From the NCBI GenBank assembly GCA_964016885.1, contig OZ024741.1, forward strand, positions 347,076,001 to 347,140,000: a stretch of DNA of 64,000 bases, read 5' to 3'. The stretch is from Eledone cirrhosa (lineage: Eukaryota). A program made the translations under genes and the position numbers. Positions 561 to 63,621 of this stretch are shown here, in pieces. The notes under the pieces were generated by a model, which saw nothing but the letters and a program-made list of their open reading frames with translations, had not been told where the DNA came from and did not search any database. Each line of letters begins with the position of its first letter. Position 1 is the stretch's first letter.

Positions 561-597
561 ACGACGTTTCGGGCATAAGCCCTTCCTCAGGTGGGAA
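561..597 (-). ncRNA. Minimal type I hammerhead motif in Neptune pLTR (weak stem I)
   Basis: Minus strand reads cccac-CTGAGGA-a-gggc-ttat-gccc-GAAA-cg-TC-gt. Core and stem II are intact; stem I has only about 2 bp. Confidence 0.6.
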
Positions 598-8681: not shown

Positions 8682-9467
<786 letters not shown>

Positions 9468-25944: not shown

Positions 25945-26286
25945 AGGTAAGTATATACGTTCAACAATCTGTCAGGAAGGTATACGTTGCTGACGATAGC
26001 TAATAAGCTTGAAACTAGTACAGCGTTCCTTTGTCAGTGTTGAACAAACGAGCAACGATGGTTGCTGGACACTACGGCTTAATACAGGATGTTTGTTTAC
26101 AAACACACCGAGCATTATAATAAATGTTCAGTGAATCCATACGTACATATATATATGTGTGCATGTATGTATATATATATACATACTACTGTGCGTCTGT
26201 ATACATATATGTATGTACGTGTACATACTTATTTTTAAGTAACAGCCGTACTAAGAGTGGGAAATGAAATTTCGTTTCATTTTTCC

Positions 26287-37896: not shown

Positions 37897-37938
<42 letters not shown>

Positions 37939-38163
37939 GGATTAACAAATAATAGTTAAATGCAGTCCACTTAGGTGAAGTCCAGTTATGGTATTCCAGG
38001 TAGTGGATGATATTAACGCTTGGCTTGGTTTGACTCAACAAGGCGTTTTCATAGTGATGCTGCGGGTATGCTGTAATTCCTATGTTGTAAACACTTGGAG
38101 TAATAATAAATCAGGAAAGAAGGTTTACATGGTTTGCTATACAAAAAAGTTTTTAATCACATA

Positions 38164-38269
38164 GCTTACATTTGTTTCACTGAACTGGTATGTCTAGAGA
38201 TCGCTATCCGCCTAATTTTGCGTCACTCGATCGCCAATACAGAATTATAACCAGTCAGATCTTCGGAGC
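38164..38269 (-). ncRNA. Type I hammerhead motif, C4 variant with long stem II insertion (3' pLTR)
   Basis: gct-CCGAAGA-t-ctgactggt..(~65 nt)..accagttcag-t-GAAA-c-aaat-g-TA-agc. Confidence 0.7.
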
Positions 38270-38629: not shown

Positions 38630-38700
<71 letters not shown>

Positions 38701-39032
38701 TAAATACATATACACATATATGTGTACATAGACACATACATACACACTAATATACACTCGTACAAAAATATACATACATGCAAAGAGAAAAGCGTGCTAA
38801 TTGTAATATGGCAAAAAGAAGGTAAAGTAACATTGTAGTAGTGAAATGAGAAAAACTAGGATCTAGGATCAAATGATTGCAGCAGCTGAGAAGGAGTAAG
38901 ATTGTTGGTAGATGAGGTATTTACAGACTATTGTGTGGTATAGACTTGTGAAGGAAATAGTATACTTAATGAATATATATTTTTTGTGGGTAGTAGGTAT
39001 CCTAATTTAAAGCTATGTTATGTTGGTTCGAT

Positions 39033-41417
39033 TCACGGAGGTTTGAATCTTATGAATTTAGTGGTTATTCTATGCCTGCAGAAGATAGATCTTTCTAACT
39101 TATTATTAAGTAGTCTTTTAACATTTCTAAGGATATACAATAGCTCAAGATCACACAGCCCGCAATAGGACATACCTGTACTATAGGTTTTAGCAGCCGA
39201 CAACTTCGACCAGTTGATAGTGTAGCTAGCGTTGCTGTCCTTCAATTCCCATATTTTTCTGGCGAGGGTGGTGGAACCCATAAGAGCTCGGTTTTTCATC
39301 GAGTGCCTGTGCACATACCATCTTTTCTTAAAAGAACCCGCGGTAGATCCTATGTAATTCCAAGTGGAGTTACCCGAGATGACAGTGCACATGTACACCA
39401 GGCTCGAATCGAGACATTTATTCGCCAATGGGCACCTATCTGGGAGGTGACAGTTGCAGTTTGAGGCGCTATTATGTGCAGCTTTTACATTCCTATTTAG
39501 TACCCTGTTATAAGTGGGTTGTGATATATGCCCAATGGGGTTTTGCTGCTACGCGTTTGTATGCGCTTGTGGTTGTGATGTTGTGATGAGTTTATGCTTA
39601 TGTATAGGTGCAATTGATTTACTTGAGATATTTCTGCGGTTGATCTTGCGTATGTGTGATTCTATGTTAGCTGCTGTTGAAAAAGAGAGTTTTATAGTAG
39701 ATCTATTGAGTAGTTTGTGATATCTATGCGAGATAGGGAAGTGTTTATCTATTAGTTTAAAGAATATAGAAGGCAGTCTAGTTTTTATAGAGGAGTTGAA
39801 TATTGGGTTGAACCATAGGTATTTCCTTTGTCTGTTTCTTCTATTGTTTCTAGGGTTTACGTTATTAGTGTTTTGGCCGTTTACTCTAGGTGTTACATGT
39901 CTAACCCTATGTCTAGTCAAGCTATTCCTATTATTATGTGAGCGGTTGGAGTAGAAATTACTAGGATTGTTTATGTTGTCCTTATTCACTATATACTGTA
40001 GTTTATCTTTATGACCGGCCCTACTTAATGCTGCATTATAATAGTCAGCATGCTCGTTAAAGATTTCTAGGTTTGAGGATAGGCGGGATATTCGGAGGGA
40101 TATACTACGTGCTATGGATTTAATTATGGATTTGGGGTGATTTGAGTTGTAACTAATGTAGGCAAGATTTTCATTATTTTTGTGGAAAGGTTCTATTAAT
40201 CCAGTATTTAGATTTAGAGTTACATCTAGAAAATTTACCTTCTTATGGTTTAGTTCGTAGGTAATACTTAGGCCTAGTTTTTTGAAGAATATTCTAATAT
40301 TTTTCCTTAGTCTTTCCATGCTCTGGTTGTTTAGGTTCCTAGCTATAAGTAACGTGTCGTCCCTATAAATTCCTCCTTGGAGGTTACTGAATTCCTTATG
40401 TAGGTTGTGTGCTATGAATAGCCCCACGATATCTGTAATTTGCGCAGAATCATTTGAACCCATTGTAATATCGAAGCTATTTATTCTATCCTTTCTTACC
40501 CAGTAGTTATTTTCAAATTTTACGATAGTCCTTCTAGCCGCTATTATTATTTCAATTTCATCATGGGTAAGATCAGAGTTATTTTGGGCAAATATAAGCG
40601 CCTTATCTAGGGTAGCTGGGGATATGGATGCATAATAGTCGTCTATATCAAATTGTATGAAGTTACACGTATCCCTATTTTGTATTTTATTGAACCATTT
40701 AATTGCCTCGTTAGTGTTGCCCCATAGATTGATTTCTAGTTTACCCTTTATTTGTGCGATTACCCTATCTAGAATGTTTTTGCTAATTTTACCTATGTCT
40801 GACTTGGATGGGCATATTAATCTAATGGTAGGATTAGTTTCAAAGTTATTTTTGTGATCTTTCAGGTTAAATGTAGGGTTGCACGGGGTAAGCGGTTCGG
40901 TCCTATCTGAAATTCCGAGTTTATTAACTATCTTGAGGCCCTCCATGTTTATGCTGGTGAGTGTAGATTCATTTGTTTTTTTATATTTTTTATGTAGTTC
41001 ACGCTGAATAAAGTTATTGTATGTGTTAATGTCCATAGAGTATACGTTTGATGTTTTGTCTGCTTTTACTATGATACCGTTAGTGTCTTTTAGTTTTTTA
41101 AGTAATGTGTTTAAGTCATTTTGCAATTTGTTGTGATTTGTTCTTTTTTTAAATTTAGTTTCACTTATCATGTTCATAAGGTCCAGCTCGAAGGCATCGA
41201 GTGCGGGGTTGTTTGGCGGGTTTTTGCAGGATTTAAACCCGTAATTCTCCTTGGAAAATTTCCTTCTGTTGGTATTCGGTCCCTTATCGAAATGGTAAGC
41301 TTTCCATCGGACCCTGCGGATGAAATCATTAGTCCGTCGTATCATGCCCAGTGTATAGTCCTTTTTTGTAGGTACAGGTATGTTTTTTAGTGACATACCT
41401 ATACAGTGCTTCTCCAT
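39033..41417 (-). pseudogene. Naiad-type RT + GIY-YIG ORF (~794 codons) with one premature TAG
   Basis: SLKNIPVP, RRVRWKAYHF, KADKT, FDIDDYYASI, ITMGS, GGIYRDD, WFNP, CNC...CPLANKCL, VY..YIG (GIY-YIG), CGLC..E..NK..CRH. TAG at 39549-39551 is CAG in the inverted copy. Confidence 0.92.
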
Positions 41418-41694
41418 GTTGTTGCCGTGCGTTAATGGTGTTGCTCGACCAGGTGGGAGCTAAATATACGGATTAACAAATAATAGTTAAATGCAGTCCA
41501 CTTAGGTGAAGTCCAGTTATGGTATTCCAGGTAGTGGATGATATTAACGCTTGGCTTGGTTTGACTCAACAAGGCGTTTTCATAGTGATGCTGCGGGTAT
41601 GCTGTAATTCCTATGTTGTAAACACTTGGAGTAATAATAAATCAGGAAAGAAGGTTTACATGGTTTGCTATACAAAAAAGTTTTTAATCACATA

Positions 41695-41800
41695 GCTTAC
41701 ATTTGTTTCACTGAACTGGTATGTCTAGAGATCGCTATCCGCCTAATTTTGCGTCACTCGATCGCCAATACAGAATTATAACCAGTCAGATCTTCGGAGC
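41695..41800 (-). ncRNA. Same hammerhead motif in the 5' pLTR
   Basis: Identical to 38164-38269, spaced 3531 nt away. Confidence 0.7.
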
Positions 41801-42165
41801 ATGCGAGAATGAAGAAAATACACAGACAAGAAAATAAAAGAAAATATGGAGTAGTTATGGCATTCAATTAGAACAATAAACAACAACAATTATTACAACA
41901 ATGCTATCAATAAACTATTTAAGGAGACCCTGACATTACTTAGGTGGGGGGTATATAATGTATCTAATGTTACGGCGTGAAAACCAGCTGTCATAAGGCA
42001 AAAAGTATCGTAGTGTGTATCAATTTTAAATTATAAAGATAAGCTAGTTTTTACAGTCTTTCTCTTCATCTTCAACCGTATACATGAGTGGGACCACTGT
42101 CAAAGCTCAATAGTTGTAGAGTTGATACAGAGGTTAACGAATTAATATACGCATATATCTACGCG

Positions 42166-42205
<40 letters not shown>

Positions 42206-42585
42206 AATATAAATACATATACACATATATGTGTACATAGACACATACATACACACTAATATACACTCGTACAAAAATATACATACATGCAAAGAGAAAA
42301 GCGTGCTAATTGTAATATGGCAAAAAGAAGGTAAAGTAACATTGTAGTAGTGAAATGAGAAAAACTAGGATCTAGGATCAAATGATTGCAGCAGCTGAGA
42401 AGGAGTAAGATTGTTGGTAGATGAGGTATTTACAGACTATTGTGTGGTATAGACTTGTGAAGGAAATAGTATACTTAATGAATATATATTTTTTGTGGGT
42501 AGTAGGTATCCTAATTTAAAGCTATGTTATGTTGGTTCGATTCACGGAGGTTTGAATCTTATGAATTTAGTGGCTATTCTATGCC

Positions 42586-43569
42586 GGTCATAAAGATAAA
42601 CTACAGTATATAGTGAATAAGGACAACATAAACAATCCTAGTAATTTCTACTCCAACCGCTCACATAATAATAGGAATAGCTTGACTAGACATAGGGTTA
42701 GACATGTAACACCTAGAGTAAACGGCCAAAACACTAATAACGTAAACCCTAGAAACAATAGAAGAAACAGACAAAGGAAATACCTATGGTTCAACCCAAT
42801 ATTCAACTCCTCTATAAAAACTAGACTGCCCTCTATATTCTTTAAACTAATAGATAAACACTTCCCTATCTCGCATAGATATCACAAACTACTCAATAGA
42901 TCTACTATAAAACTCTCTTTTTCAACAGCAGCTAACATAGAATCACACATACGCAAGATCAACCGCAGAAATATCTCAAGTAAATCAATTGCACCTATAC
43001 ATAAGCATAAACTCATCACAACATCACAACCACAAGCGCATACAAACGCGCAGCAGCAAAACCCCATTGGGCATATATCACAACCCACTTATAACAGGGT
43101 ACTAAATAGGAATGTAAAAGCTGCACATAATAGCGCCTCAAACTGCAACTGTCACCTCCCAGATAGGTGCCCATTGGCGAATAGATGTCTCGATTCGAGC
43201 CTGGTGTACATGTGCACTGTCATCTCGGGTAACTCCACTTGGAATTACATAGGATCTACCGCGGGTTCTTTTAAGAAAAGATGGTATGTGCACAGGCACT
43301 CGATGAAAAACCGAGCTCTTATGGGTTCCACCACCCTCGCCAGAAAAATATGGGAATTGAAGGACAGCAACGCTAGCTACACTATCAACTGGTCGAAGTT
43401 GTCGGCTGCTAAAACCTATAGTACAGGTATGTCCTATTGCGGGCTGTGTGATCTTGAGCTATTGTATATCCTTAGAAATGTTAAAAGACTACTTAATAAT
43501 AAGTTAGAAAGATCTATCTTCTGCAGGCATAGAATAGCCACTAAATTCATAAGATTCAAACCTCCGTGA
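42586..43569 (+). pseudogene. Inverted 5'-truncated copy of the ORF 3' part (linker and GIY-YIG), frame intact
   Basis: ORF 42613-43569 is near-identical to the reverse complement of ~39033-40017. Confidence 0.9.
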
Positions 43570-43901
43570 ATCGAACCAACATAACATAGCTTTAAATTAG
43601 GATACCTACTACCCACAAAAAATATATATTCATTAAGTATACTATTTCCTTCACAAGTCTATACCACACAATAGTCTGTAAATACCTCATCTACCAACAA
43701 TCTTACTCCTTCTCAGCTGCTGCAATCATTTGATCCTAGATCCTAGTTTTTCTCATTTCACTACTACAATGTTACTTTACCTTCTTTTTGCCATATTACA
43801 ATTAGCACGCTTTTCTCTTTGCATGTATGTATATTTTTGTACGAGTGTATATTAGTGTGTATGTATGTGTCTATGTACACATATATGTGTATATGTATTT
43901 A

Positions 43902-43971
<70 letters not shown>

Positions 43972-44332
43972 TAGATATATGCGTATATTAATTCGTTAAC
44001 CTCTGTATTAACTCTACAACTATTGAGCTTTGACAGTGGTCCCACTCATGTATACGGTTGAAGATGAAGAGAAAGACTGTAAAAACTAGCTTATCTTTAT
44101 AAATTAAAATTGATACACACTACGATACTTTTTGCCTTATGACAGCTGGTTTTCACGCCGTAACATTAGATACATTATATACCCCCCACCTAAGTAATGT
44201 CAGGGTCTCCTTAAATAGTTTATTGATAGCATTGTTGTAATAATTGTTGTTGTTTATTGTTCTAATTGAATGCCATAACTACTCCATATTTTCTTTTATT
44301 TTCTTGCCTGTGTATTTTCTTCATTCTCGCAT

Positions 44333-44438
44333 GCTCCGAAGATCTGACTGGTTATAATTCTGTATTGGCGATCGAGTGACGCAAAATTAGGCGGATAGCG
44401 ATCTCTAGACATACCAGTTCAGTGAAACAAATGTAAGC
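44333..44438 (+). ncRNA. Same hammerhead motif in the inverted pLTR
   Basis: Reverse complement of 38164-38269. Confidence 0.7.
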
Positions 44439-44491
44439 TATGTGATTAAAAACTTTTTTGTATAGCAAACCATGTAAACCTTCTTTCCTGA

Positions 44492-44543
<52 letters not shown>

Positions 44544-50397: not shown

Positions 50398-50536
50398 TTA
50401 ATTATGTAATAAGCAACACAATATAATTATTCCATTACCCAAAGTCACACTATTCTAAAAGAGAGGCGTCTGAAGGCGTTCATCAAAAACTTGGGAAATG
50501 GAATAATTATATTGTGCTGTTTATTACATAATTAAA
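50398..50536. repeat. Imperfect inverted repeat (~45-bp arms)
   Basis: ttaattatgtaataa...ttccattacccaa / ttgggaaatggaataatt...ttattacataattaa. Confidence 0.75.
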
Positions 50537-50595
50537 TAGCTCTGTACTATACATAGAGCACCCTTCTTTCCTTTACCTCTTCCAGGGAAATACTT

Positions 50596-50659
<64 letters not shown>

Positions 50660-50690
50660 AAAAAATAGAGGTGTAACACACGAGTTGTGA

Positions 50691-51090
50691 TATATTAGTA
50701 AAAGGAAAAGAAAATGCTGACAAAATTTTCCCAGTGAAAAATAGTTTAATTAGGAATAAATATAAATTAGTAATAAGTATTGGTTAGTATTCAGTTTTAG
50801 TTTTAAGTTTTTACCGGTTGCGCATTCCAATGCTTTTCAAAAATAATTTTGAGATAGAGCGCTCGTGTTGTTTTCTCTAAACCGCAATTGGAGCAAACAT
50901 CACGATTAGAGCAACCAGCACGAGCGCTCTATCTCAAAATATTCTTGAAAATCATTAGAAATGCGCAACAGGTAAAAACTTAAAACTAAAACTGAATACT
51001 AACCAATACTTATTACTAATTTATACTTATTCCTAATTAAAGTATTTTTCACTGGGAAAAATTTGTCAGCATTTTCTTTTGCTTTTACTA

Positions 51091-51092
<2 letters not shown>
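50691..51092. repeat. ~190-bp-arm inverted repeat with a degenerate HHR in each arm
   Basis: Arms 50691-50880 and 50906-51092. The left arm on the minus strand reads ttt-TTGAAAA-gcatt-gg-aatgc-GCAA-c-cg-g-TA-aaa. Confidence 0.85.
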
Positions 51093-51122
<30 letters not shown>

Positions 51123-51166
51123 AAGTTAAATAAAAGTCAAATGATTAAAATTTAGCTTCGTTTATT

Positions 51167-51221
51167 ACTGCTATATATATTTCAGTGACAGCCATCTTTG
51201 GCTGTGACCTCTTCAGGCAGT
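51167..51221 (-). ncRNA. Type I hammerhead ribozyme (inverted pLTR)
   Basis: actgc-CTGAAGA-ggtc-acagcca-aaga-tggctgt-cact-GAAA-tatata-TA-gcagt, followed by aataaa. Confidence 0.85.
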
Positions 51222-52420
51222 TTGAATTAGTATGGTATAGACAAGTACATATGTTGTTTAGGTGTATGATATTGTCAATACTCTGATATGCCCAGTTCCT
51301 TGTTGGGTTGTTAATTCACTGGGGAACTGGAGTCATATGAATTCAAACAAACGAATTTTAGTGTCACAGGTCCCCTTCTCCTCTCATTGGTCAGTTATTA
51401 GTGTTGTCATTGTTGGAGTTAGCTTAAAAATTGATAAAATGGTAGAAGGGACAAGGTGTTGAAGGAACAAAATATCAAAAAATGTGTCAAACTTCCCATT
51501 GTTCAGTTCTGAGAGCATTCCTCAGTCAGAAGTCTATAGAATTCTTTCTGGGGTGAGGCTTCCTGTAGTGTTTATGCCTGCTATTGTTCAGTACATTTGA
51601 CCTCCACCATTATTTTGGTACTGTTGTTGTTGTAGTGGTCAGCTTATATCTTGCTGCTGCTAACAATTTAGAAGTATTCAGTTTGTGTTTTCTCTTCATC
51701 CCACCCGCCACCATCGTAGTGGTGGTGGCGGTGGGGGGGGGGGGGGGGTTATTTCATGTATATGAAGAAATATAAGGCAATAAATGAAGAAAACAGAAGA
51801 TAAATAAATAATATAATAAAATAAAATAATTAATATAATTTGTGTAATTTGAAAATAAATAAATAAATAGAGAATAAAGAATAAAGAGTAAATGAGAGAT
51901 TGGTGAAAAAGTAATGATAATGTATATGGAGAAGTGAGAAATAATGTAGGATAAAGTGTGTGTGTGTGTGTGCTATAACCAATCTCAAGGTCAGAATATG
52001 TTGGATAAATTGGTATGATACAAGATGTTAAGATGAGATATTCAATGTGTTTGTGTTATAATCTATCTCAACTTAAAATAAATATAAATATAAGGTTATA
52101 CAGTGAAGAGGGCAGAAAACAAATAACAAATTAATATAGAGAAATCAAGATTTAAGATTGGAACTTTAAAGTCAGAAATCTGGTAAATTAAAAGTGTTTG
52201 TGTTATAGATGTTGGCCAGATTATTATGGCTGTGTCCGATTCTGTCTCTAGGCTATCATGGTGTCTGCTCCGCCTGGGTTGTTCCCTATGGCTTGAGGGG
52301 AGTTCACAACCTAGGGTGTTGTAATTGTCCATATAGCTTGAGGGAGGTCTGGCCGAGATGTGTTTTCATGTTCTGTAGAAGTCCCTATAGCTTGAGGGGA
52401 GTTCACATCTTCTTGTGTTG

Positions 52421-53764
52421 CTACTGTCCATATATTTTGAGAAAGGTCCCGGCTCTAAGGTGTCTGCATGTCCCGAAGAAGTCGGTTCTGAGGTTTATCA
52501 GGCCGCTTCCACCTCTTAGTATCTCGAGGGTCTCGTTCAGGCATAGTTTGCATATGCAAGATCCCCCTTTATCGGGTGGTACTTTCCTGATTATGTACCA
52601 GGCCAGAGAGTATGGGGTCCTGTCCAGCTAAAGCTTCCAGATCAGGTCGGAGAGAGCTGTGCTTTTCCTTTTGGCCTCTTTCTTGAATGAATGGCGATGG
52701 TTGTACCAGCGGTCCTTAAAGCTCGTTGATGTGGCTCCTATGTAGAGGTGTTCGGAGTTGGGGGTTTTAACCCTACAACCGTACACTATGTTCTTCTTGA
52801 GACATTCATTACCAAGGGGGCATGATTCGGGGTTTCTACAGTTGCAGAGGGTGGGCGGCCTCTGCGTGCTTAGATTAGGGTTCTCATTATGTGTTACATG
52901 TTGGTCATACCCCATGCTCGGTGGGGGGTCCTTGGGTCTGTTTGTGTTTCTTGGGTGGGCTCTGGGTCCCCCCTTCCCTCCTTTCACATGGTTCTGCTGA
53001 GTGTTTGTATTGCCATCTTCTGGTTGTGTGTGGTTTTTAAGCCTACTTCTGTTGATGCTAGCTATGTGTTGGGCCAAATTTCTCGTGGCGGAATACGAAA
53101 GCTTCACAGTGTGTCTGTTGAAGATCCTGTGGTATCTGTGGTCCCTCGGGAAGCATTTGTCAAGTGCTCCAAAGAACAATCGGGCCAAGCTTTTCTTTAG
53201 GGCCGCTGAGTAGGGTGGGTTGTACCACGTGATTTGTCGGTGTCTCCTCCTATATGTGTGGGTTGGGGGCTTCGTGATTTGTTGGAGATTTGTTGGTTTG
53301 CTGGTAGTTTCCGCACTGTTGCTTCCCTTTTGGGCTCTATACTTTCTGTTATCTTTACGGCCCGGATTTGTGGGGTGGTTGTTGTCTGCCCCGGGAGATC
53401 CATCGTGGGGTGGTCGCCCGTTTCCTACCCCCCCACGTGTCCTGCGGTTGGGGTTGTCCGTCCTGGGGTAGTTAGCATCACGCCTGAGACTGCTACTCAT
53501 ATTGTGCTCCATCTCGTGGTCAAGCGCACTAGTCCCCACCGCCCGTGTGGTGGTGTCTGGTACATGGTGCCTATTTGATTTTGCTCTGCTTGTATTGTTA
53601 GGGTTCGCCCTCCCCCCTCTGGTAACGCGGTTGTGGGTGTCTGTTGGACTATCCACCTCCCGGCTTTTCGGACTATATGTTATATTTTGTCCATGTGCCG
53701 CCTTCTTTAGAGCTGCGTTGTAATATTCCGCGTTGTAATATTCCGCGTTGTAATATTCCGCGTG
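52421..53764 (-). pseudogene. Inverted 5'-truncated copy of the ORF 3' half, with AAG>TAG stop at 52628-52630
   Basis: ORF 52628-53656 matches the forward ORF without the poly-G frameshift. Confidence 0.9.
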
Positions 53765-54744
53765 CTATAACACAAACACTTTTAATTTACCAGATTTCTG
53801 ACTTTAAAGTTTCAATCTTAAATCTTGATTTCTCTATATTAATTTGTTATTTGTTTTCTGCCCTCTTCACTGTATAACCTTATATTTATATTTATTTTAA
53901 GTTGAGATAGATTATAACACAAACACATTGAATATCTCATCTTAACATCTTGTATCATACCAATCTATCCAACATATTCTGACCTTGAGATTGGTTATAG
54001 CACACACACACACACACTTTATCCTACATTATTTCTCACTTCTCCATATACATTATCATTACTTTTTCACCAATCTCTCATTTACTCTTTATTCTTTATT
54101 CTCTATTTATTTATTTATTTTCAAATTACACAAATTATATTAATTATTTTATTTTATTATATTATTTATTTATCTTCTGTTTTCTTCATTTATTGCCTTA
54201 TATTTCTTCATATACATGAAATAACCCCCCCCCACCGCCACCACCACTACGATGGTGGCGGGTGGGATGAAGAGAAAACACAAACTGAATACTTCTAAAT
54301 TGTTAGCAGCAGCAAGATATAAGCTGACCACTACAACAACAACAGTACCAAAATAATGGTGGAGGTCAAATGTACTGAACAATAGCAGGCATAAACACTA
54401 CAAGGAGCCTCACCCCAGAAAGAATTCTATATACTTCTGACTGAGGAATGCTCTCAGAACTGAACAATGGGAAGTTTGACACATTTTTTGATATTTTGTT
54501 CCTTCAACACCTTGTCCCTTCTACCATTTTATCAATTTTTAAGCTAACTCCAACAATGACAACACTAATAACTGACCAATGAGAGGAGAAGGGGACCTGT
54601 GACACTAAAATTCGTTTGTTTGAATTCATATGACTCCAGTTCCCCAGTGAATTAACAACCCAACAAGGAACTGGGCATATCAGAGTATTGACAATATCAT
54701 ACACCTAAACAACATATGTACTTGTCTATACCATACTAATTCAA

Positions 54745-54799
54745 ACTGCCTGAAGAGGTCACAGCCAAAGATGGCTGTCACTGAAATATATATAGCAGT
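54745..54799 (+). ncRNA. Type I hammerhead ribozyme (5' pLTR)
   Basis: Identical motif, with a perfect 5-bp stem I (actgc/gcagt). Confidence 0.85.
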
Positions 54800-55001
54800 A
54801 ATAAACGAAGCTAAATTTTAATCATTTGACTTTTATTTAACTTTATTTTACACTACTCCGGAGTAACCAAACCAACCTGCGCACTTCGTCGAGTGCTCCA
54901 GCCTGCATACTGAGGTGTTGGTATACAACCAACATAAACTCAAAATCTATCTAGCTCCCACACGGGTTGAGCGCTTCAAACAGTAGCGGACCTAAGTCAC
55001 T

Positions 55002-57685
55002 ATGGATAAACTGGCAACCTTAGCGTCACTGAAGGACATCCCCCTACCTGATAAACGAGAATACACCAGTGATCTCATCAAGAGTACGGACTCCCTCATC
55101 CGTAGGATGAGATGGAAGGCGTTCCACTTCGAAAGAGGAACGCAGAAAACTACAAACACAGAAAACATGGAGTACCTTTTTCGATCAAGGAGGAATCCCC
55201 CCCATAACAGACTAATGGAGGAGTTTGAAAACGAGATGATTAACATCATATCCAACCTCAAATTCTCCGGAAACCCAACCAGAAGTCAGGAGTACCTCAG
55301 ACACCTGAGAAACCGGATTACAGTACTTAAAGGGACAACTGGAATACTTGTCCATGCTGACAAAACAAACAACCTCTACAACATGAACACTGAACTGTAC
55401 AATAAACTAATCCTCAGGGAACTGAGGAAGTGCTACAAAAAAACACCTGGATTTACCCTGGATGAGATCAATGCCACAGCTTACAGGATTATATCCAGAA
55501 TCGGCATAGAGGACAGGACTGCCCCATACCAACCAAGGGAGCCGCGGATTACCCTTAAAGACCACAAGTCAAACTTTGAGTCCGACCTCCCTGTCAGACT
55601 AATAGCCCCCTCCAGATCTGACCTAGGGATCGTCAGTAAAAGAATACTGGATAGGATTTTGCCCAAGCTTCGGAAAAAAACCAAATTACAGCAATGGTCA
55701 TGCACGAGAGAAGCAATAGAATGGTTCAAAATACTGCAGGAGAAAAGTAGGACCAGCTTTATACAACTGGACATCGCAAGCTACTACTCCTCAATCTCAC
55801 CCATAGTACTTAATAAGGCCCTATTTTTAGCGATGTCCAATACGGACCTAACCCGAGAGGAGGTGAGCATCATCCACGCCGAAAGAAAGACCTTAATCCG
55901 CTTCGATGGAGACCTGTGGACCAGGAGTGATTGGCCAAATAACTTTGACATCACGATGGGCTCCAGCGACTCAGCGCAGGTAACGGACCTGGTTGGGCTC
56001 TACCTGCTGAAGCAGATAAAAGATGAAATCCCCTGCCTGGGCGGCGGATTATATCGTGACGATGCTCTATTCACAGTACATGACCACAGTACCAATATGT
56101 TGGAGGGTATGAGGAGGCGTATTCGCCATTTCTTTAAGAACCAGGGGCTCAGCATAGAAATAGACCCAAATAGGAAGGTAGTTAACTTCCTAGACACCAC
56201 CCTAAACCTGAACACCGAGCAATACTACCCCTACCACAAGCCCAACGAGAAACTAGTATATGTTAACGCCAAATCAAACCACCCTAGATCCATAACCAAG
56301 GCAGTGGTGAAGAGTGTCTCGGACAGGATCTCCAGCCTGTCCGCAAGTAAGGAAATATTCAACAACCACGCGGAATATTACAACGCAGCTCTAAAGAAGG
56401 CGGCACATGGACAAAATATAACATATAGTCCGAAAAGCCGGGAGGTGGATAGCCCAACAGACACCCACAACCGCGTTACCAGAGGGGGGAGGGCGAACCC
56501 TAACAATACAAGCAGAGCAAAATCAAATAGGCACCATGTACCAGACACCACCACACGGGCGGTGGGGACTAGTGCGCTTGACCACGAGATGGAGCACAAT
56601 ATGAGTAGCAGTCTCAGGCGTGATGCTAACTACCCCAGGACGGACAACCCCAACCGCAGGACACGTGGGGGGGGGGGGGGGGAAACGGGCGTCAACCCCA
56701 CGATGGATCTCCCGGGTCAGACAACAACCACCCCACAAATCCGGGCCGTGAAGATAACAGAAAGTATAGAGCCCAAAAGGGAAGCAACAGTGCGGAAACC
56801 ACCAGCAAACCAACAAATCTCCAACAAATCACGAAGCCCCCAACCCACACATATAGGAGAAGACACCGACAAATCACGTGGTACAACCCACCCTACTCAG
56901 CGGCCCTAAAGAAAAGCTTGGCCCGATTGTTCTTTGGAGCACTTGACAAATGCTTCCCGAGGGACCACAGATACCACAGGATCTTCAACAGACACACTGT
57001 GAAGCTTTCGTATTCCACCACGAGAAATTTGGCCCAACACATAGCTAGCATCAACAGAAGTAGGCTTAAAAACCACACACAACCAGAAGATGGCAATACA
57101 AACACTCAGCAGAACCATGTGAAAGGAGGGAAGGGGGGACCCAGAGCCCACCCAAGAAACACAAACAGACCCAAGGACCCCCCACCGAGCATGGGGGAAG
57201 ACCAACATGTAACACATAATGAGAACCCTAATCTAAGCACGCAGAGGCCGCCCACCCTCTGCAACTGTAGAAACCCCGAATCATGCCCCCTTGGTAATGA
57301 ATGTCTCAAGAAGAACATAGTGTACGGTTGTAGGGTTAAAACCCCCAACTCCGAACACCTCTACATAGGAGCCACATCAACGAGCTTTAAGGACCGCTGG
57401 TACAACCATCGCCATTCATTCAAGAAGGACGCCAAAAGGAAAAGCACAGCTCTCTCCGACCTGATCTGGAAGCTTAAGCTGGACAGGACCCCATACTCTC
57501 TGGCCTGGTACATAATCAGGAAAGTACCACCCGATAAAGGGGGATCTTGCATATGCAAACTATGCCTGAACGAGACCCTCGAGATACTAAGAGGTGGAAG
57601 CGGCCTGATAAACCTCAGAACCGACTTCTTCGGGACATGCAGACACCTTAGAGCCGGGACCTTTCTCAAAATATATGGACAGTAG
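55002..57685 (+). CDS. Naiad-type RT + GIY-YIG ORF with one frameshift in a poly-G run
   Basis: SLKDIPLP, RRMRWKAFHF, HADKT, LDIASYYSSI, ITMGS, GGLYRDD, WYNPPYS, CNCRNPESCPLGNECL, IVY..YIG, CKLCLNE, CRH. G16 at 56667-56682 corresponds to G7TAGG in the inverted copy. Confidence 0.85.
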
Positions 57686-58879: not shown

Positions 58880-58934
58880 ACTGCCTGAAGAGGTCACAGC
58901 CAAAGATGGCTGTCACTGAAATATATATAGCAGT
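58880..58934 (+). ncRNA. Type I hammerhead ribozyme (3' pLTR)
   Basis: Identical motif, 4135 nt from the 5' copy. Confidence 0.85.
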
Positions 58935-59100
58935 AATAAACGAAGCTAAATTTTAACCATTTGACTTTTATTTAACTTTATTTTACACTACTCCGGAGTA
59001 ACCAAACCAACCTGCGCACTTCGTCGAGTGCTCCAGCCTGCATACTGAGGTGTTGGTATACAACCAACATAAACTCAAAATATATATATATATGTATATA

Positions 59101-59965: not shown

Positions 59966-60291
59966 ATATTGTCATACTTTGGGAGGGTCATGTTGCCAAT
60001 AAGAAACACATGATCCAGTTGCTTTCACTTCAATTTATTATATATTTATAAATTTATAAATTTACAAATTTACAAACTTATAAATTTCTGGGTGGTTGGT
60101 TGGTTCCACAACCAGATAGTTGTTTATATATAGTCATAGTCCTTTCCTCACACACTCTGTGACCTCTTCAGTGGCTGAAATTTATAAGTTTGTAAATTTG
60201 TAAATTTATAAATTTATAAATATATAATAAATTGAAGTAAAAGCAACTGGTGCGTGTGTTTCTTATTGGCAACATGACCCTCCCAAAGTAT

Positions 60292-61712: not shown

Positions 61713-61757
61713 AACGATGTACTAGTTTCAAGCTTGTTAGCTATCATCAGCACCGTT
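61713..61757 (-). ncRNA. Type I hammerhead ribozyme, unit 1
   Basis: aacggtg-CTGATGA-t-agct-aaca-agct-t-GAAA-c-ta-g-TA-catcgtt (7-bp stem I with one G-U). Confidence 0.9.
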
Positions 61758-62178
61758 TACCCATCTGCCAGATAGTTGAACGTTCGAAAGTATATACTTT
61801 CCTTATGAAAATTAACGGCTGAGCAGCCTAATTTGCATATTGAGTGAGTTAAATCGGTCAGGCATACCGAAAACGATAAATTGAAACAAAATGAAAACGA
61901 AATTTCATTTCTCACTCTTAGTATGGCACTTACTTAAATGTAAGTATGCATGTATACGTACATACATATATGTATACAGACGTACAGTAGCATGCACATA
62001 TATATATATATATACATATATACATACATATGCATACAGGTACACATACATATATGCACGTATCAGTTTAGCGGCGCTAACGTCGCTTTGTTCGTTTGTA
62101 AACAAACTGAACAGCCTGAATTTATGCCATACGGTGTTAAGGCAACCACGTCACCTTTTTGTTCAACACTGACACAGG

Positions 62179-62223
62179 AACGATGTACTAGTTTCAAGCT
62201 TGTTAGCTATCATCAGCACCGTT
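62179..62223 (-). ncRNA. Type I hammerhead ribozyme, unit 2
   Basis: Identical to unit 1. Confidence 0.9.
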
Positions 62224-62644
62224 TACCCATCTGCCAGATAGTTGAACGTTCGAAAGTATATACTTTCCTTATGAAAATTAACGGCTGAGCAGCCTAATTT
62301 GCATATTGAGTGAGTTAAATTGGTCAGGCATACCGAAAACGATAAATTGAAACAAAATGAAAACGAAATTTCATTTCTCACTCTTAGTATGGCACTTACT
62401 TAAATGTAAGTATGCATGTATACGTACATACATATATGTATACAGACGTACAGTAGCATGCACATATATATATATATATACATATATACATACATATGCA
62501 TACAGGTACACATACATATATGCACGTATCAGTTTAGCGGCGCTAACGTCGCTTTGTTCGTTTGTAAACAAACTGAACAGCCTGAATTTATGCCATACGG
62601 TGTTAAGGCAACCACGTCACCTTTTTGTTCAACACTGACACAGG

Positions 62645-62689
62645 AACGATGTACTAGTTTCAAGCTTGTTAGCTATCATCAGCACCGTT
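62645..62689 (-). ncRNA. Type I hammerhead ribozyme, unit 3
   Basis: Identical to unit 1. Confidence 0.9.
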
Positions 62690-63110
62690 TACCCATCTGC
62701 CAGACAGTTGAACGTTCGAAAGTATATACTTTCCTTATGAAAATTAACGGCTGAGCAGCCTAATTTGCATATTGAGTGAGTTAAATCGGTCAGGCATACC
62801 GAAAACGATAAATTGAAACAAAATGAAAACGAAATTTCATTTCTCACTCTTAGTATGGCACTTACTTAAATGCAAGTATGCATGTATACGTACATACATA
62901 TATGTATACAGACGTACAGTAGCATGCACATATATATATATATATACATATATACATACATATGCATACAGGTACACATACATATATGCACGTATCAGTT
63001 TAGCGGCGCTAACGTCGCTTTGTTCGTTTGTAAACAAACTGAACAGCCTGAATTTATGCCATACGGTGTTAAGGCAACCACGTCACCTTTTTGTTCAACA
63101 CTGACACAGG

Positions 63111-63155
63111 AACGATGTACTAGTTTTAAGCTTGTTAGCTATCATCAGCACCGTT
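63111..63155 (-). ncRNA. Hammerhead, unit 4, with G12>A core mutation (probably inactive)
   Basis: Plus strand reads tagttttaag instead of tagtttcaag (63127 C>T), so GAAA becomes AAAA. Confidence 0.8.
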
Positions 63156-63576
63156 TACCCATCTGCCAGATAGTTGAACGTTCGAAAGTATATACTTTCC
63201 TTATGAAAATTAACGGCTGAGCAGCCTAATTTGCATATTGAGTGAGTTAAATCGGTCAGGCATACCGAAAACGATAAATTGAAACAAAATGAAAACGAAA
63301 TTTCATTTCTCACTCTTAGTATGGCACTTACTTAAATGCAAGTATGCATGTATACGTACATACATATATGTATACAGACGTACAGTAGCATGCACATATA
63401 TATATATATATACATATATACATACATATGCATACAGGTACACATACATATATGCACGTATCAGTTTAGCGGCGCTAACGTCGCTTTGTTCGTTTGTAAA
63501 CAAACTGAACAGCCTGAATTTATGCCATACGGTGTTAAGGCAACCACGTCACCTTTTTGTTCAACACTGACACAGG

Positions 63577-63621
63577 AACGATGTACTAGTTTCAAGCTTG
63601 TTAGCTATCATCAGCACCGTT
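63577..63621 (-). ncRNA. Type I hammerhead ribozyme, unit 5
   Basis: Identical to unit 1. Confidence 0.9.

Follow-up and report, generated by a model that had tools for sequence, protein, structure and literature searches.

The 64,000-nt stretch of the Eledone cirrhosa genome analyzed here (contig OZ024741.1, positions 347,076,001 to 347,140,000, forward strand; hereafter the window) contains two Penelope-like elements (PLEs), E1 and E2. Both carry a short motif, GCUCC...GAGC, shortly before the start codon of their open reading frame (ORF). We describe the conservation of this motif in related families, its position relative to the two end points of element copies (called Y and X), and its candidate role as a start-site signal for the element-encoded reverse transcriptase (RT).

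Two Penelope-like elements in the window

E1 and E2 have the same layout. In each, a full copy is preceded by a partial tandem copy of the tail (pseudo-long terminal repeat, pLTR), a 5'-truncated inverted copy stands opposite, and everything lies within (TA)n. The motif is found where the upstream tail copy meets the 5' untranslated region (UTR) of the unit. Unit spacing is 3531 bp in E1 and about 4133 bp in E2. The parts of the two insertions are as follows (EN, endonuclease).

39033..41417, minus strand: E1 coding region; RT frame 41417 to 39549, a stop, then CxCX5C linker and GIY-YIG domain, 39548 to 39033
55002..57685, plus strand: E2 coding region; RT frame 55002-56909, with linker and GIY-YIG domain in the other frame, 56630-57685
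42583..44496, plus strand: E1 inverted 5'-truncated arm, ending at X beside (TA)n
51116..53764, minus strand: E2 inverted 5'-truncated arm, ending at X beside (TA)n
41443..41462, minus strand: E1 motif, U-A-GCUCC-CACCUGGUC-GAGC, a candidate hairpin directly 3' of end point Y
54952..54972, plus strand: E2 motif, U-A-GCUCC-CACACGGGUU-GAGC
41463..41477, minus strand: E1 tandem junction, zone of the candidate start site Y; last bases of the upstream partial tail copy, GUUAAUCCGUAUAU plus U
54937..54951, plus strand: E2 tandem junction, zone of the candidate start site Y; tail end AACUCAAAAU plus linker CUAUC
37933..37946, minus strand: E1 true 3' end at about 37937, where the same tail bases run straight into (TA)n (...CCGTATAT, then (AT)n)
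59072..59081, plus strand: E2 true 3' end into (TA)n at about 59080 (...CTCAAAAT, then (AT)n)

Judged by their sequence, E1 and E2 are PLEs of the Hydra clade. Their ORFs are 45% identical over 525 aa (E 5e-158), and both encode an RT, a linker and, at the C-terminus, a GIY-YIG domain, in this order. The GIY-YIG domain was matched in Pfam with E 5.4e-4 and 20.6 bits, which is under the 22.6-bit cut-off, and the RT frames of E1 and E2 matched no Pfam family at E up to 0.01. RWK and DKT motifs are present in both elements (RRVRWKAYHF and KADKTSNVY in E1, RRMRWKAFHF and HADKTNNLY in E2), and a zinc-finger-like linker and neighboring motifs can be read by eye (CNCHLPDRC, CGLC and CRH in E1, CNCRNPESC in E2). 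By eye in the translations, without alignment to canonical PLE endonucleases, there is no obvious CCHH inside the GIY-YIG core. Insertion into (TA)n was seen in all families looked at.

As described by Craig et al. (2021, PMC8557442), elements of the Hydra clade are generally <3 kb and are marked by RWK, DKT, a CxCX5C linker, CxxC/CxH around conserved E and N, a C-terminal GIY-YIG domain, (TA)n as target and, in the 3' region, a hammerhead. E1 and E2 share these features, with the hammerhead of E2, and differ in unit length (3.5 and 4.1 kb, a weak criterion) and in the hammerhead core of E1, which reads CCGAAGAU. Naiads are described in the same source as having an N-terminal GIY-YIG domain joined to the RT by a CxC domain, DKA, and no canonical hammerhead. 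A previous sequence-only reading of the window had named the two elements Naiad PLEs. This name has to be given up, with the endonuclease C-terminal, DKT in place of DKA and a canonical hammerhead in E2; we place the elements in the Hydra clade because of the RT-then-EN order and the RWK, DKT and CxCX5C motifs.

Both window copies are broken between RT and EN, by the stop at 39549 (minus strand) in E1 and by a frame change at 56909 (plus strand) in E2. The inverted E1 arm runs from RT through EN in a single frame, and the genome search also listed copies in which the frame stays open, over about 808 aa in the E1 type and about 894 aa in the E2 type.

A conserved core precedes the start codon

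The motif sites and their distances to the start codon are as the sequence-only reading had given them. E1 has tatt-TAGCTCCCAC-CTGGTC-GAGC on the minus strand (41462 to 41443), and ATG 41417 starts 25 nt later. E2 has tatc-TAGCTCCCAC-ACGGGTT-GAGC on the plus strand (54952-54972), and ATG 55002 starts 29 nt later. The UTRs had been called otherwise unalignable, which is not wholly so: both elements have an ACGG block that follows the motif and, within the tail, a block of GAGU/AACCAA.

The 10-mer count in the window is not significant. The exact 10-mer TAGCTCCCAC occurs at two window sites only, the E1 and E2 motifs, and at up to one mismatch there are 3 matches versus 2.17 expected, a number reached in 37 of 100 shuffles. 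In the 3.0-Gb genome, the pattern TAGCTCCCACN{5,8}GAGC has 157 matches, and the reversed control has 2. The motif is therefore considered to be beyond chance because of its position before homologous ORFs and its recurrence in the genome, not because of the 10-mer count.

Copies were sampled by protein, without reference to the motif. The N-terminal 140 aa of each ORF were compared with the genome (13,430 and 12,012 first-look candidates, 150 scored per search), and the DNA upstream of 40 hits, which span 51-95% identity, was fetched. The core was present, intact or one base off, in 32 of 32 non-truncated copies, and in the remaining 8 of the 40 loci the sequence ahead of the ATG is truncated or rearranged. 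In about nine families or subfamilies, with 45-100% protein identity, the shared core reads GCUCC-N6-7-GUY-GAGC, with 9-10 nt between GCUCC and GAGC, a free loop and the ATG 25-35 nt downstream. In an alignment of 30 distinct sequences, with a mean column identity of 60%, the pairs G21-C39, C22-G38 and U23-A37 can each form in 30 of 30, C24-G36 in 29 of 30 and C25-G33 in 28 of 30.

In one locus (L041, G000:C2:2343034-2343554), an ORF start 95% identical to that of E1 follows an unrelated 5' UTR without the motif. This may be a chimeric or transduced copy.

Element copies end beside the core

The 3' ends of element copies lie at a characteristic distance from the core. For six families, the last tail bases plus wildcards were searched genome-wide, and 100 listed matches per search were counted by hand. 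In the following lines, tandem denotes copies that continue into the motif.

Family E1, 471 matches: TA repeat directly after CCGTATA in 93 of 100 listed; tandem in 7 of 100
Family E2, 2125 matches: end within the 7-nt linker; tandem in 6 of 100 listed
Family G, 508 matches: end 4 nt before GCUCC in about two-thirds of 100 listed; tandem in 7
Family F, 159 matches: end 6 nt before GCUCC; tandem in 13 of 100 listed
Family C, 577 matches: end 3 nt before GCUCC; tandem in 6 of 100 listed
Family B, 1732 matches: end 4 nt before GCUCC; tandem in 3-5 of 100 listed

Thus, all six families tested have their ends 0-8 nt to the 5' side of the core, with hundreds to thousands of copies per family, and this distance is kept where linkers and tails have diverged past alignment. 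The sequence-only reading had noted that the downstream tails of the window copies stop in (TA)n where the motif would recur, which is seen at about 37937 (E1) and about 59080 (E2). The checks it had proposed, a motif search upstream of the start codons of other families and a comparison of 3' ends with the motif position, both agree with it, given the core in all non-truncated copies sampled and the registered ends in the six families tested. About nine diverged families hold a 5 + 7-letter core amid drifting surroundings, and thousands of insertion ends are registered to it.

Most motif copies are preceded by tail sequence. Among 29 motif copies, 27 have at least 20 nt of tail directly upstream, and 2 element loci (L016 and L017) begin at the motif adjoining (TA)n. 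Short pLTRs of 20-40 nt were seen in L009, L022 and L023.

Homology between the element and the (TA)n target at Y is not uniform. It is of the UAUA or CUA type in E1, B and E2, and amounts to just 1-2 nt in C, F and G. In family G, a better UAUAUA match is available 13 nt further upstream and is used in only about 15 of 100 listed matches. The site beside the core is preferred over this better match, so that in G, position by the core outweighs microhomology.

The ends of family E2 are informative about the template. Among 100 listed ends, 27 have no linker, 30 have CU, 28 have (CT)n with n of at least 2, 1 has the whole linker CUAUCU, 8 are of other types and 6 are tandem. Ends with CU or CUAUCU belong to copies 97-100% identical to the window copy. 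Since these linker letters exist only at the tandem junction, the template reached at least the foot of the hairpin.

(CT)n stretches, with n of at least 2 and located between ..CAAAAT and (TA)n, are found in about 28 of 100 listed E2-family ends and in 12 of 40 fetched ones (L071-L113). Three long cases, (CT)15, (CT)16 and (CT)20, are each followed by (TA)n. This looks like reiterative copying, that is slipping, on UCU at initiation; later microsatellite growth could also produce it.

The E1 tail contains an internal (CA)n(TA)n microsatellite (38644-38760, 42161-42254); copies end at Y all the same, and not there. Its Rfam microRNA matches are below threshold (mir-297, 44 bits versus a gathering threshold of 90) and are low-complexity artefacts.

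A second end point upstream of Y

The inverted arms do not end at Y. They stop at a second point, X, located 96 nt (E2) and 170 nt (E1) upstream of Y (a slash marks X).

41628..41643, minus strand: E1 end point X (..GAUUUA/UUAUU), then ACUCC; same stretch at 38097-38112, and inverted arm ending at 44496
54842..54859, plus strand: E2 end point X (..UUUAUUUUA/CACU), then ACUCC; copy at 58977-58994, and inverted arm ending at 51116

By hand count among 100 listed of 3893 matches, E2 ends in a TA repeat at X in 49 cases and reads through in 48, with 3 others; among 100 listed of 785 matches, E1 stops in 44 cases and reads through in 55, with 1 unclear. The genomic ends indicate that insertions are head-to-head pairs of one X arm and one Y arm, and this X/Y pairing is the one-sided 'tail' of PLEs.

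RCUCC comes after either end point. ACUCC follows X after 4-6 nt in E1 and E2, in which X was mapped, and is found at the matching place in at least one sampled copy of families A2, B, C, E2b, F and G. A GAGU block is conserved downstream of ACUCC, with GGAG instead in G. The partner of RCUCC is thus GAGU at X and GAGC at Y, a difference of one pair with complementarity kept.

The places where the two arms meet are often palindromic. In E2 tail copies, the palindrome TCATATGA, located -319 to -322 from Y, is the site of 10 of 40 head-to-head joins or 5' ends (L071-L110), and many such copies have perfect head-to-head joins at this palindrome or at other hairpins, for example the loop of hammerhead stem II at -189. 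One further join is at a tail hairpin (L019), and 5' joins favor ATAT palindromes. Joins at palindromes and hairpins suggest that two cDNAs meet by annealing or snap-back.

A pair of 191-nt inverted repeats (50690-51096), 90% complementary and 25 nt apart, is flanked by (TA)n tracts on both sides and lies just to the left of the E2 insertion.

Predicted RNA structure around the core

Pairing of the two halves of the motif is plausible from folding predictions, with the hairpin in the minimum-energy fold for 5 of 7 families. RNAalifold and single-sequence folds additionally predict a helix of 11-13 bp between the tail and the stretch directly 3' of the motif, which would enclose Y and the hairpin.

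41543..41555, minus strand: E1 predicted long-range helix, 5' strand GCCAAGCGUUAAU, in the tail
41424..41436, minus strand: E1 predicted long-range helix, 3' strand AUUAACGCACGGC, between motif and ATG
54903..54916, plus strand: E2 predicted long-range helix, 5' strand CUGCAUACUGAGGU
54973..54989, plus strand: E2 predicted long-range helix, 3' strand GCUUCAAACAGUAGCGG

The evidence for this helix, which would bridge tail and 5' UTR, is suggestive. It appears in the minimum-energy folds of E1 (z -1.48), B (z -3.75, none of 200 shuffles as stable), C and F, and is missing from those of G and E2. Its many G-U pairs fit the sense RNA strand.

Hammerheads and other ribozyme checks

Hammerhead motifs are found in both elements, upstream of the boundary.

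54745..54799, plus strand: E2 canonical type-I hammerhead; copies at 58880-58934 (plus) and 51167-51221 (minus); cut 152 nt before Y
41695..41799, minus strand: E1 hammerhead-like motif, core CCGAAGAU, stem II extended by a long insert; second copy at 38164-38268; predicted cut 235 nt before the motif

The E2 hammerhead reads ACUGC-CUGAAGAG-stem II-UGAA-AUAUAUAU-A/GCAGU (cut at the slash; gap 26 nt), has a canonical core in 7 of 9 E2-type loci and is of the same form as published Hydra hammerheads (PMC8557442 File S2). In the E1 core (41782-41799 and 38251-38268, minus strand), the window copy and all 3 other loci examined carry C in place of the conserved U4, and the stem II insert is of about 60 nt. 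The E1 motif may therefore be inactive or a variant. Rfam reported no ribozyme in the window at the gathering threshold and none up to E = 10 in 41200-42600 and 53700-55200, a scan that missed the real E2 hammerhead and likewise left the E1 motif unreported.

Some candidate explanations of the boundary were tried and rejected. A known ribozyme at the boundary had no Rfam match, and neither an HDV-like (hepatitis delta virus-like) nor a hammerhead fold, tried by eye, fitted the motif. A hammerhead-cut linear monomer as the main template is at odds with the ends, with just 1 of 40 E2 copies beginning at the cut site. A 3' splice site would fit the AG before CUCC in several families, yet UG is found in F, L069 and L054/L055.

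The window contains further hammerhead-type sequences. A retrozyme-like non-coding tandem at 61726-63614 (minus strand) has four canonical cores (CUGAUGA..GAAAC) at 61726, 62192, 62658 and 63590, spaced by 466 bp in the case of the first three, with the fourth another 932 bp away; it has its own TA/TG microsatellite and no GCTC..GAGC element (61.7-63.6 kb). Further cores are found at 25990-26014 (plus), 9090-9114 (minus), 567-590 (minus) and 60143-60171 (minus). Those at 25990 and 9090 are like the ribozyme of the tandem repeat, and that at 60143 is like the one of E2.

A probable start-site signal and its alternatives

Together, the above observations indirectly support the view of the motif as a cis element that is conserved and linked to the 3' boundary. 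We lean towards reading the core as an RNA start-site signal, a stem-loop that would fix one of two internal RT start sites. On this reading, the position before the ATG is a by-product, as the start site in this clade would lie within the 5' UTR. The sequence-only reading had already suggested a stem-loop that positions the RT for priming. Of this, the conservation and the tie to the 3' boundary have held, and the suggestion fits the internal initiation seen in vitro for a Poseidon element; the positioning itself is a likely reading of the genomic ends. A role of the motif in translation, which had been considered as well, finds no support; the hammerhead cut lies 152-235 nt upstream of the motif.

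The proposed sequence of events would begin with transcripts that span the junction between pLTR and unit and thus carry tail, Y, hairpin and 5' UTR on one RNA. With tail and 5' UTR paired in the long-range helix, Y would remain unpaired between hairpins. The RCUCC hairpins would be bound by the RT-EN protein, probably as a dimer, the form modeled for Poseidon, and this protein would nick the (TA)n target on both strands. One DNA 3' end would be set at Y and the other at X, and copying would proceed to the RNA 5' end. In the E2 family, a slip on UCU at Y would add (CT)n ahead of productive synthesis.

Several observations weigh against a start-site stem-loop. In the usual layout of a partial and a full copy, the full copy's own end is not followed by a hairpin on its 3' side, so full-length copies would need multi-unit, circular or end-bridged templates, and the single E2 copy in 40 that starts at the hammerhead cut is of no help to a route by ribozyme-made circles. 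The stem-loop itself was upheld only as far as the two halves are able to pair, consistently with the data. In the 30-sequence alignment, the 4-bp stem has no covariation and never varies, so that pairing is inseparable from two conserved sequence blocks. Stretches of 61-66 nt have fold energies no better than those of shuffles (z +1.1 to -1.1), the hairpin is absent from the minimum-energy fold of the short stretch in B and G, and a wider fold of E2 pairs the GAGC of the motif with an upstream GCUC instead. For the long helix, 3 of 13 pairs change on both sides in the E1-type alignment (covariation 0.108 versus 0.075 +/- 0.009, reached by 0 of 500 shuffles), but this sole positive covariation test is on related sequences, and such scores occur in 5-25% of unconstrained alignments; the E2-type alignment has no covariation signal for this helix. 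Finally, all computed family comparisons are within one genome.

The need for a special template is avoided if the ordinary RNA is a unit-length linear molecule that begins at linker and hairpin and ends at Y, an alternative that we hold to be unlikely. Here, the helix would join the 5' UTR to the 3' tail of the same or a second RNA, priming would occur at a true RNA 3' end beside the RT-bound hairpin, and the pLTR would result from a 5'-to-3'-end jump. Full-length copies would then come from ordinary loci, the predicted helix does link tail and 5' UTR, and both the short pLTRs and the two loci that begin at the motif beside (TA)n would fit. The 27 of 29 motif copies with tail directly upstream are difficult to reconcile with such an RNA, as are the letters CU and CUAUCU in E2 ends, which would be RNA 5'-end letters in this model, and no RNA-cutting mechanism was seen at Y, where Rfam finds no ribozyme and from which the hammerhead cuts are 152-235 nt upstream. 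Alternatively, Y could be an inherited boundary, copied from masters that read through into a (UA)n which anneals to the nicked (TA)n. The tandem junction would then be an old accident, and the motif would be kept for some other RNA function of the 5' UTR, for example in translation, stability or packaging. The (TA)n targets of all families, the TA-type microhomology at Y in E1, B and E2, the preference of 5' joins for ATAT palindromes and the fixed motif-ATG distance of 25-35 nt agree with this. Nevertheless, it seems quite improbable to us, with several junction classes among near-identical E2 copies, a site beside the hairpin favored by G over the better UAUAUA 13 nt upstream, TA homology of just 1-2 nt in F, C and G, and Y at 0-8 nt from the core in 6 of 6 families despite the divergence of linkers and tails.

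The core could also act in duplex DNA, as a GCTC-N-GAGC dyad that serves as an internal promoter or start site, or as a binding site through which the GIY-YIG/zinc-finger part would steer nicking and insertion to places beside copies already present. Inverted half-sites at a constant spacing of 11-12 bp, with a free spacer, would suit a dimeric DNA binder, and the endonuclease of Drosophila virilis Penelope is reported to need the 'tail' for recognition (PMC11167929). We consider a DNA-level signal very improbable all the same. In family C, the inner pair changes from C-G to U-G in 4 of 14 sequences, which pairs on the sense RNA strand only, and the flanking helix has many G-U pairs; insertions are found in plain (TA)n, far from other copies; and a promoter role leaves the 3' ends abutting the motif unexplained.

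If the core is an RNA start-site signal, it would be a compact, mutable RNA element for testing internal priming. It would explain why, in this clade, the 'tail' is one-sided and the inverted arms are paired, correct PLE boundaries in annotation and, through the (CT)n stutter, give a concrete link to telomerase-style primer alignment and repeat addition.

Comparison with known systems

Similar hairpins can be recognized in published Hydra consensi (PMC8557442 File S7). These were compared by eye only, and the cross-phylum likeness is unquantified. In Hydra-1_Ajap, GCTCC-13 nt-GTCGAGC precedes the ATG by 29 nt, and the consensus opens with a GCTCT...AGAGC hairpin. Hydra-2_Ajap terminates in ...TATATATTTAG-GCTCT...AGAGC plus 27 nt, Hydra-1_Obim has ...ACTCC...GGTTGGGCGCTTC 43 nt before the ATG, which is close to GGTTGAGCGCTTC of E2, and Hydra-1_Crog has a GCCC.../...GGGC variant at its start. 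If these hairpins are homologous to the core, the element is old, and the stem does covary. The main text of PMC8557442 contains neither 'hairpin' nor 'stem-loop', no description of a conserved 5' UTR or boundary element was noticed in that paper, and literature searches for a described PLE hairpin or start signal brought up only PMC11167929 and no account of the GCUCC...GAGC core.

A small TA-embedded element in the window (50400-50597, plus strand) has a hairpin of comparable appearance. It consists of an imperfect palindrome (50400-50535), the hairpin GCTCTGTACTATACATAGAGC (50539-50559; GCUCU...AGAGC) and a 38-nt tail, with (TA)n at 50598, and the GCTCT..AGAGC hairpins in sea-cucumber Hydra consensi from the literature are similar to this hairpin.

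The closest functional parallel is the Poseidon element PAc of Anolis (Frangieh et al., 2024, PMC11167929). As described there, reverse transcription begins at two adjacent internal sites located in a stem-loop close to where pLTR and ORF join, and depends on RNA 3' of these sites. Each of the two DNA strands is cut and extended, the 'tail' is delimited by the sites, and the hammerhead is dispensable. The elements studied here share with PAc two nearby internal sites by the pLTR/ORF junction, here candidate start sites, with the one-sided 'tail' between them, a stem-loop, here predicted, at the start site, the use of both target strands, which leads to inverted arms, AT-rich targets and a hammerhead off the boundary. 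The PAc sites, in contrast, lie 111-118 nt inside the ORF, 30-40 nt apart, with an AC-rich stem-loop and, according to the same description, no homology to the nicked DNA, whereas those of E1 and E2, known from genomic ends only, lie in tail and 5' UTR, 96-170 nt apart, and each is followed by RCUCC. Y often has 1-5 nt of TA-type homology with the target, and (CT)n stutter is seen. How a PLE chooses its RT start is known, in vitro only, for this one Poseidon element, from which no sequence rule was obtained.

In stringent long interspersed nuclear elements (LINEs) and R2 (PMC4176376, PMC11194090), a small structured RNA by the cDNA start is read by the element's own RT, as would be the case here. 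Their signals, however, are 5' of the start, at the RNA 3' end, whereas the core described here is 3' of a candidate internal start.

A further likeness is to telomerase. Telomerase RNA presents a short single-stranded template beside a boundary or anchor helix, aligns the primer by a few bases and is copied reiteratively into repeats, and some non-LTR elements have microsatellite 3' tails. The template beside a helix, the few-base primer alignment and the reiterated short repeats, here (CT)n, would be common to both systems. They differ in that repeat addition would here be an optional prelude to copying of a long template, and in that the helix would be 3' of the start site. RTs of PLEs are the sister group of TERT (PMC8557442). 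As a rather unlikely extension of the start-site reading, Hydra-clade PLEs could therefore possess a telomerase-like initiation module, in which an RCUCC helix would anchor the RT beside a single-stranded alignment and template stretch of 3-8 nt, the (TA)n end would be aligned by a few bp and a 2-nt template would be reiterated, with (CT)n up to about 20, while the X and Y modules would serve a dimeric RT-EN and build head-to-head insertions. Such a module, if real, would be a living intermediate between the target-primed reverse transcription of retrotransposons and the repeat addition of telomerase.

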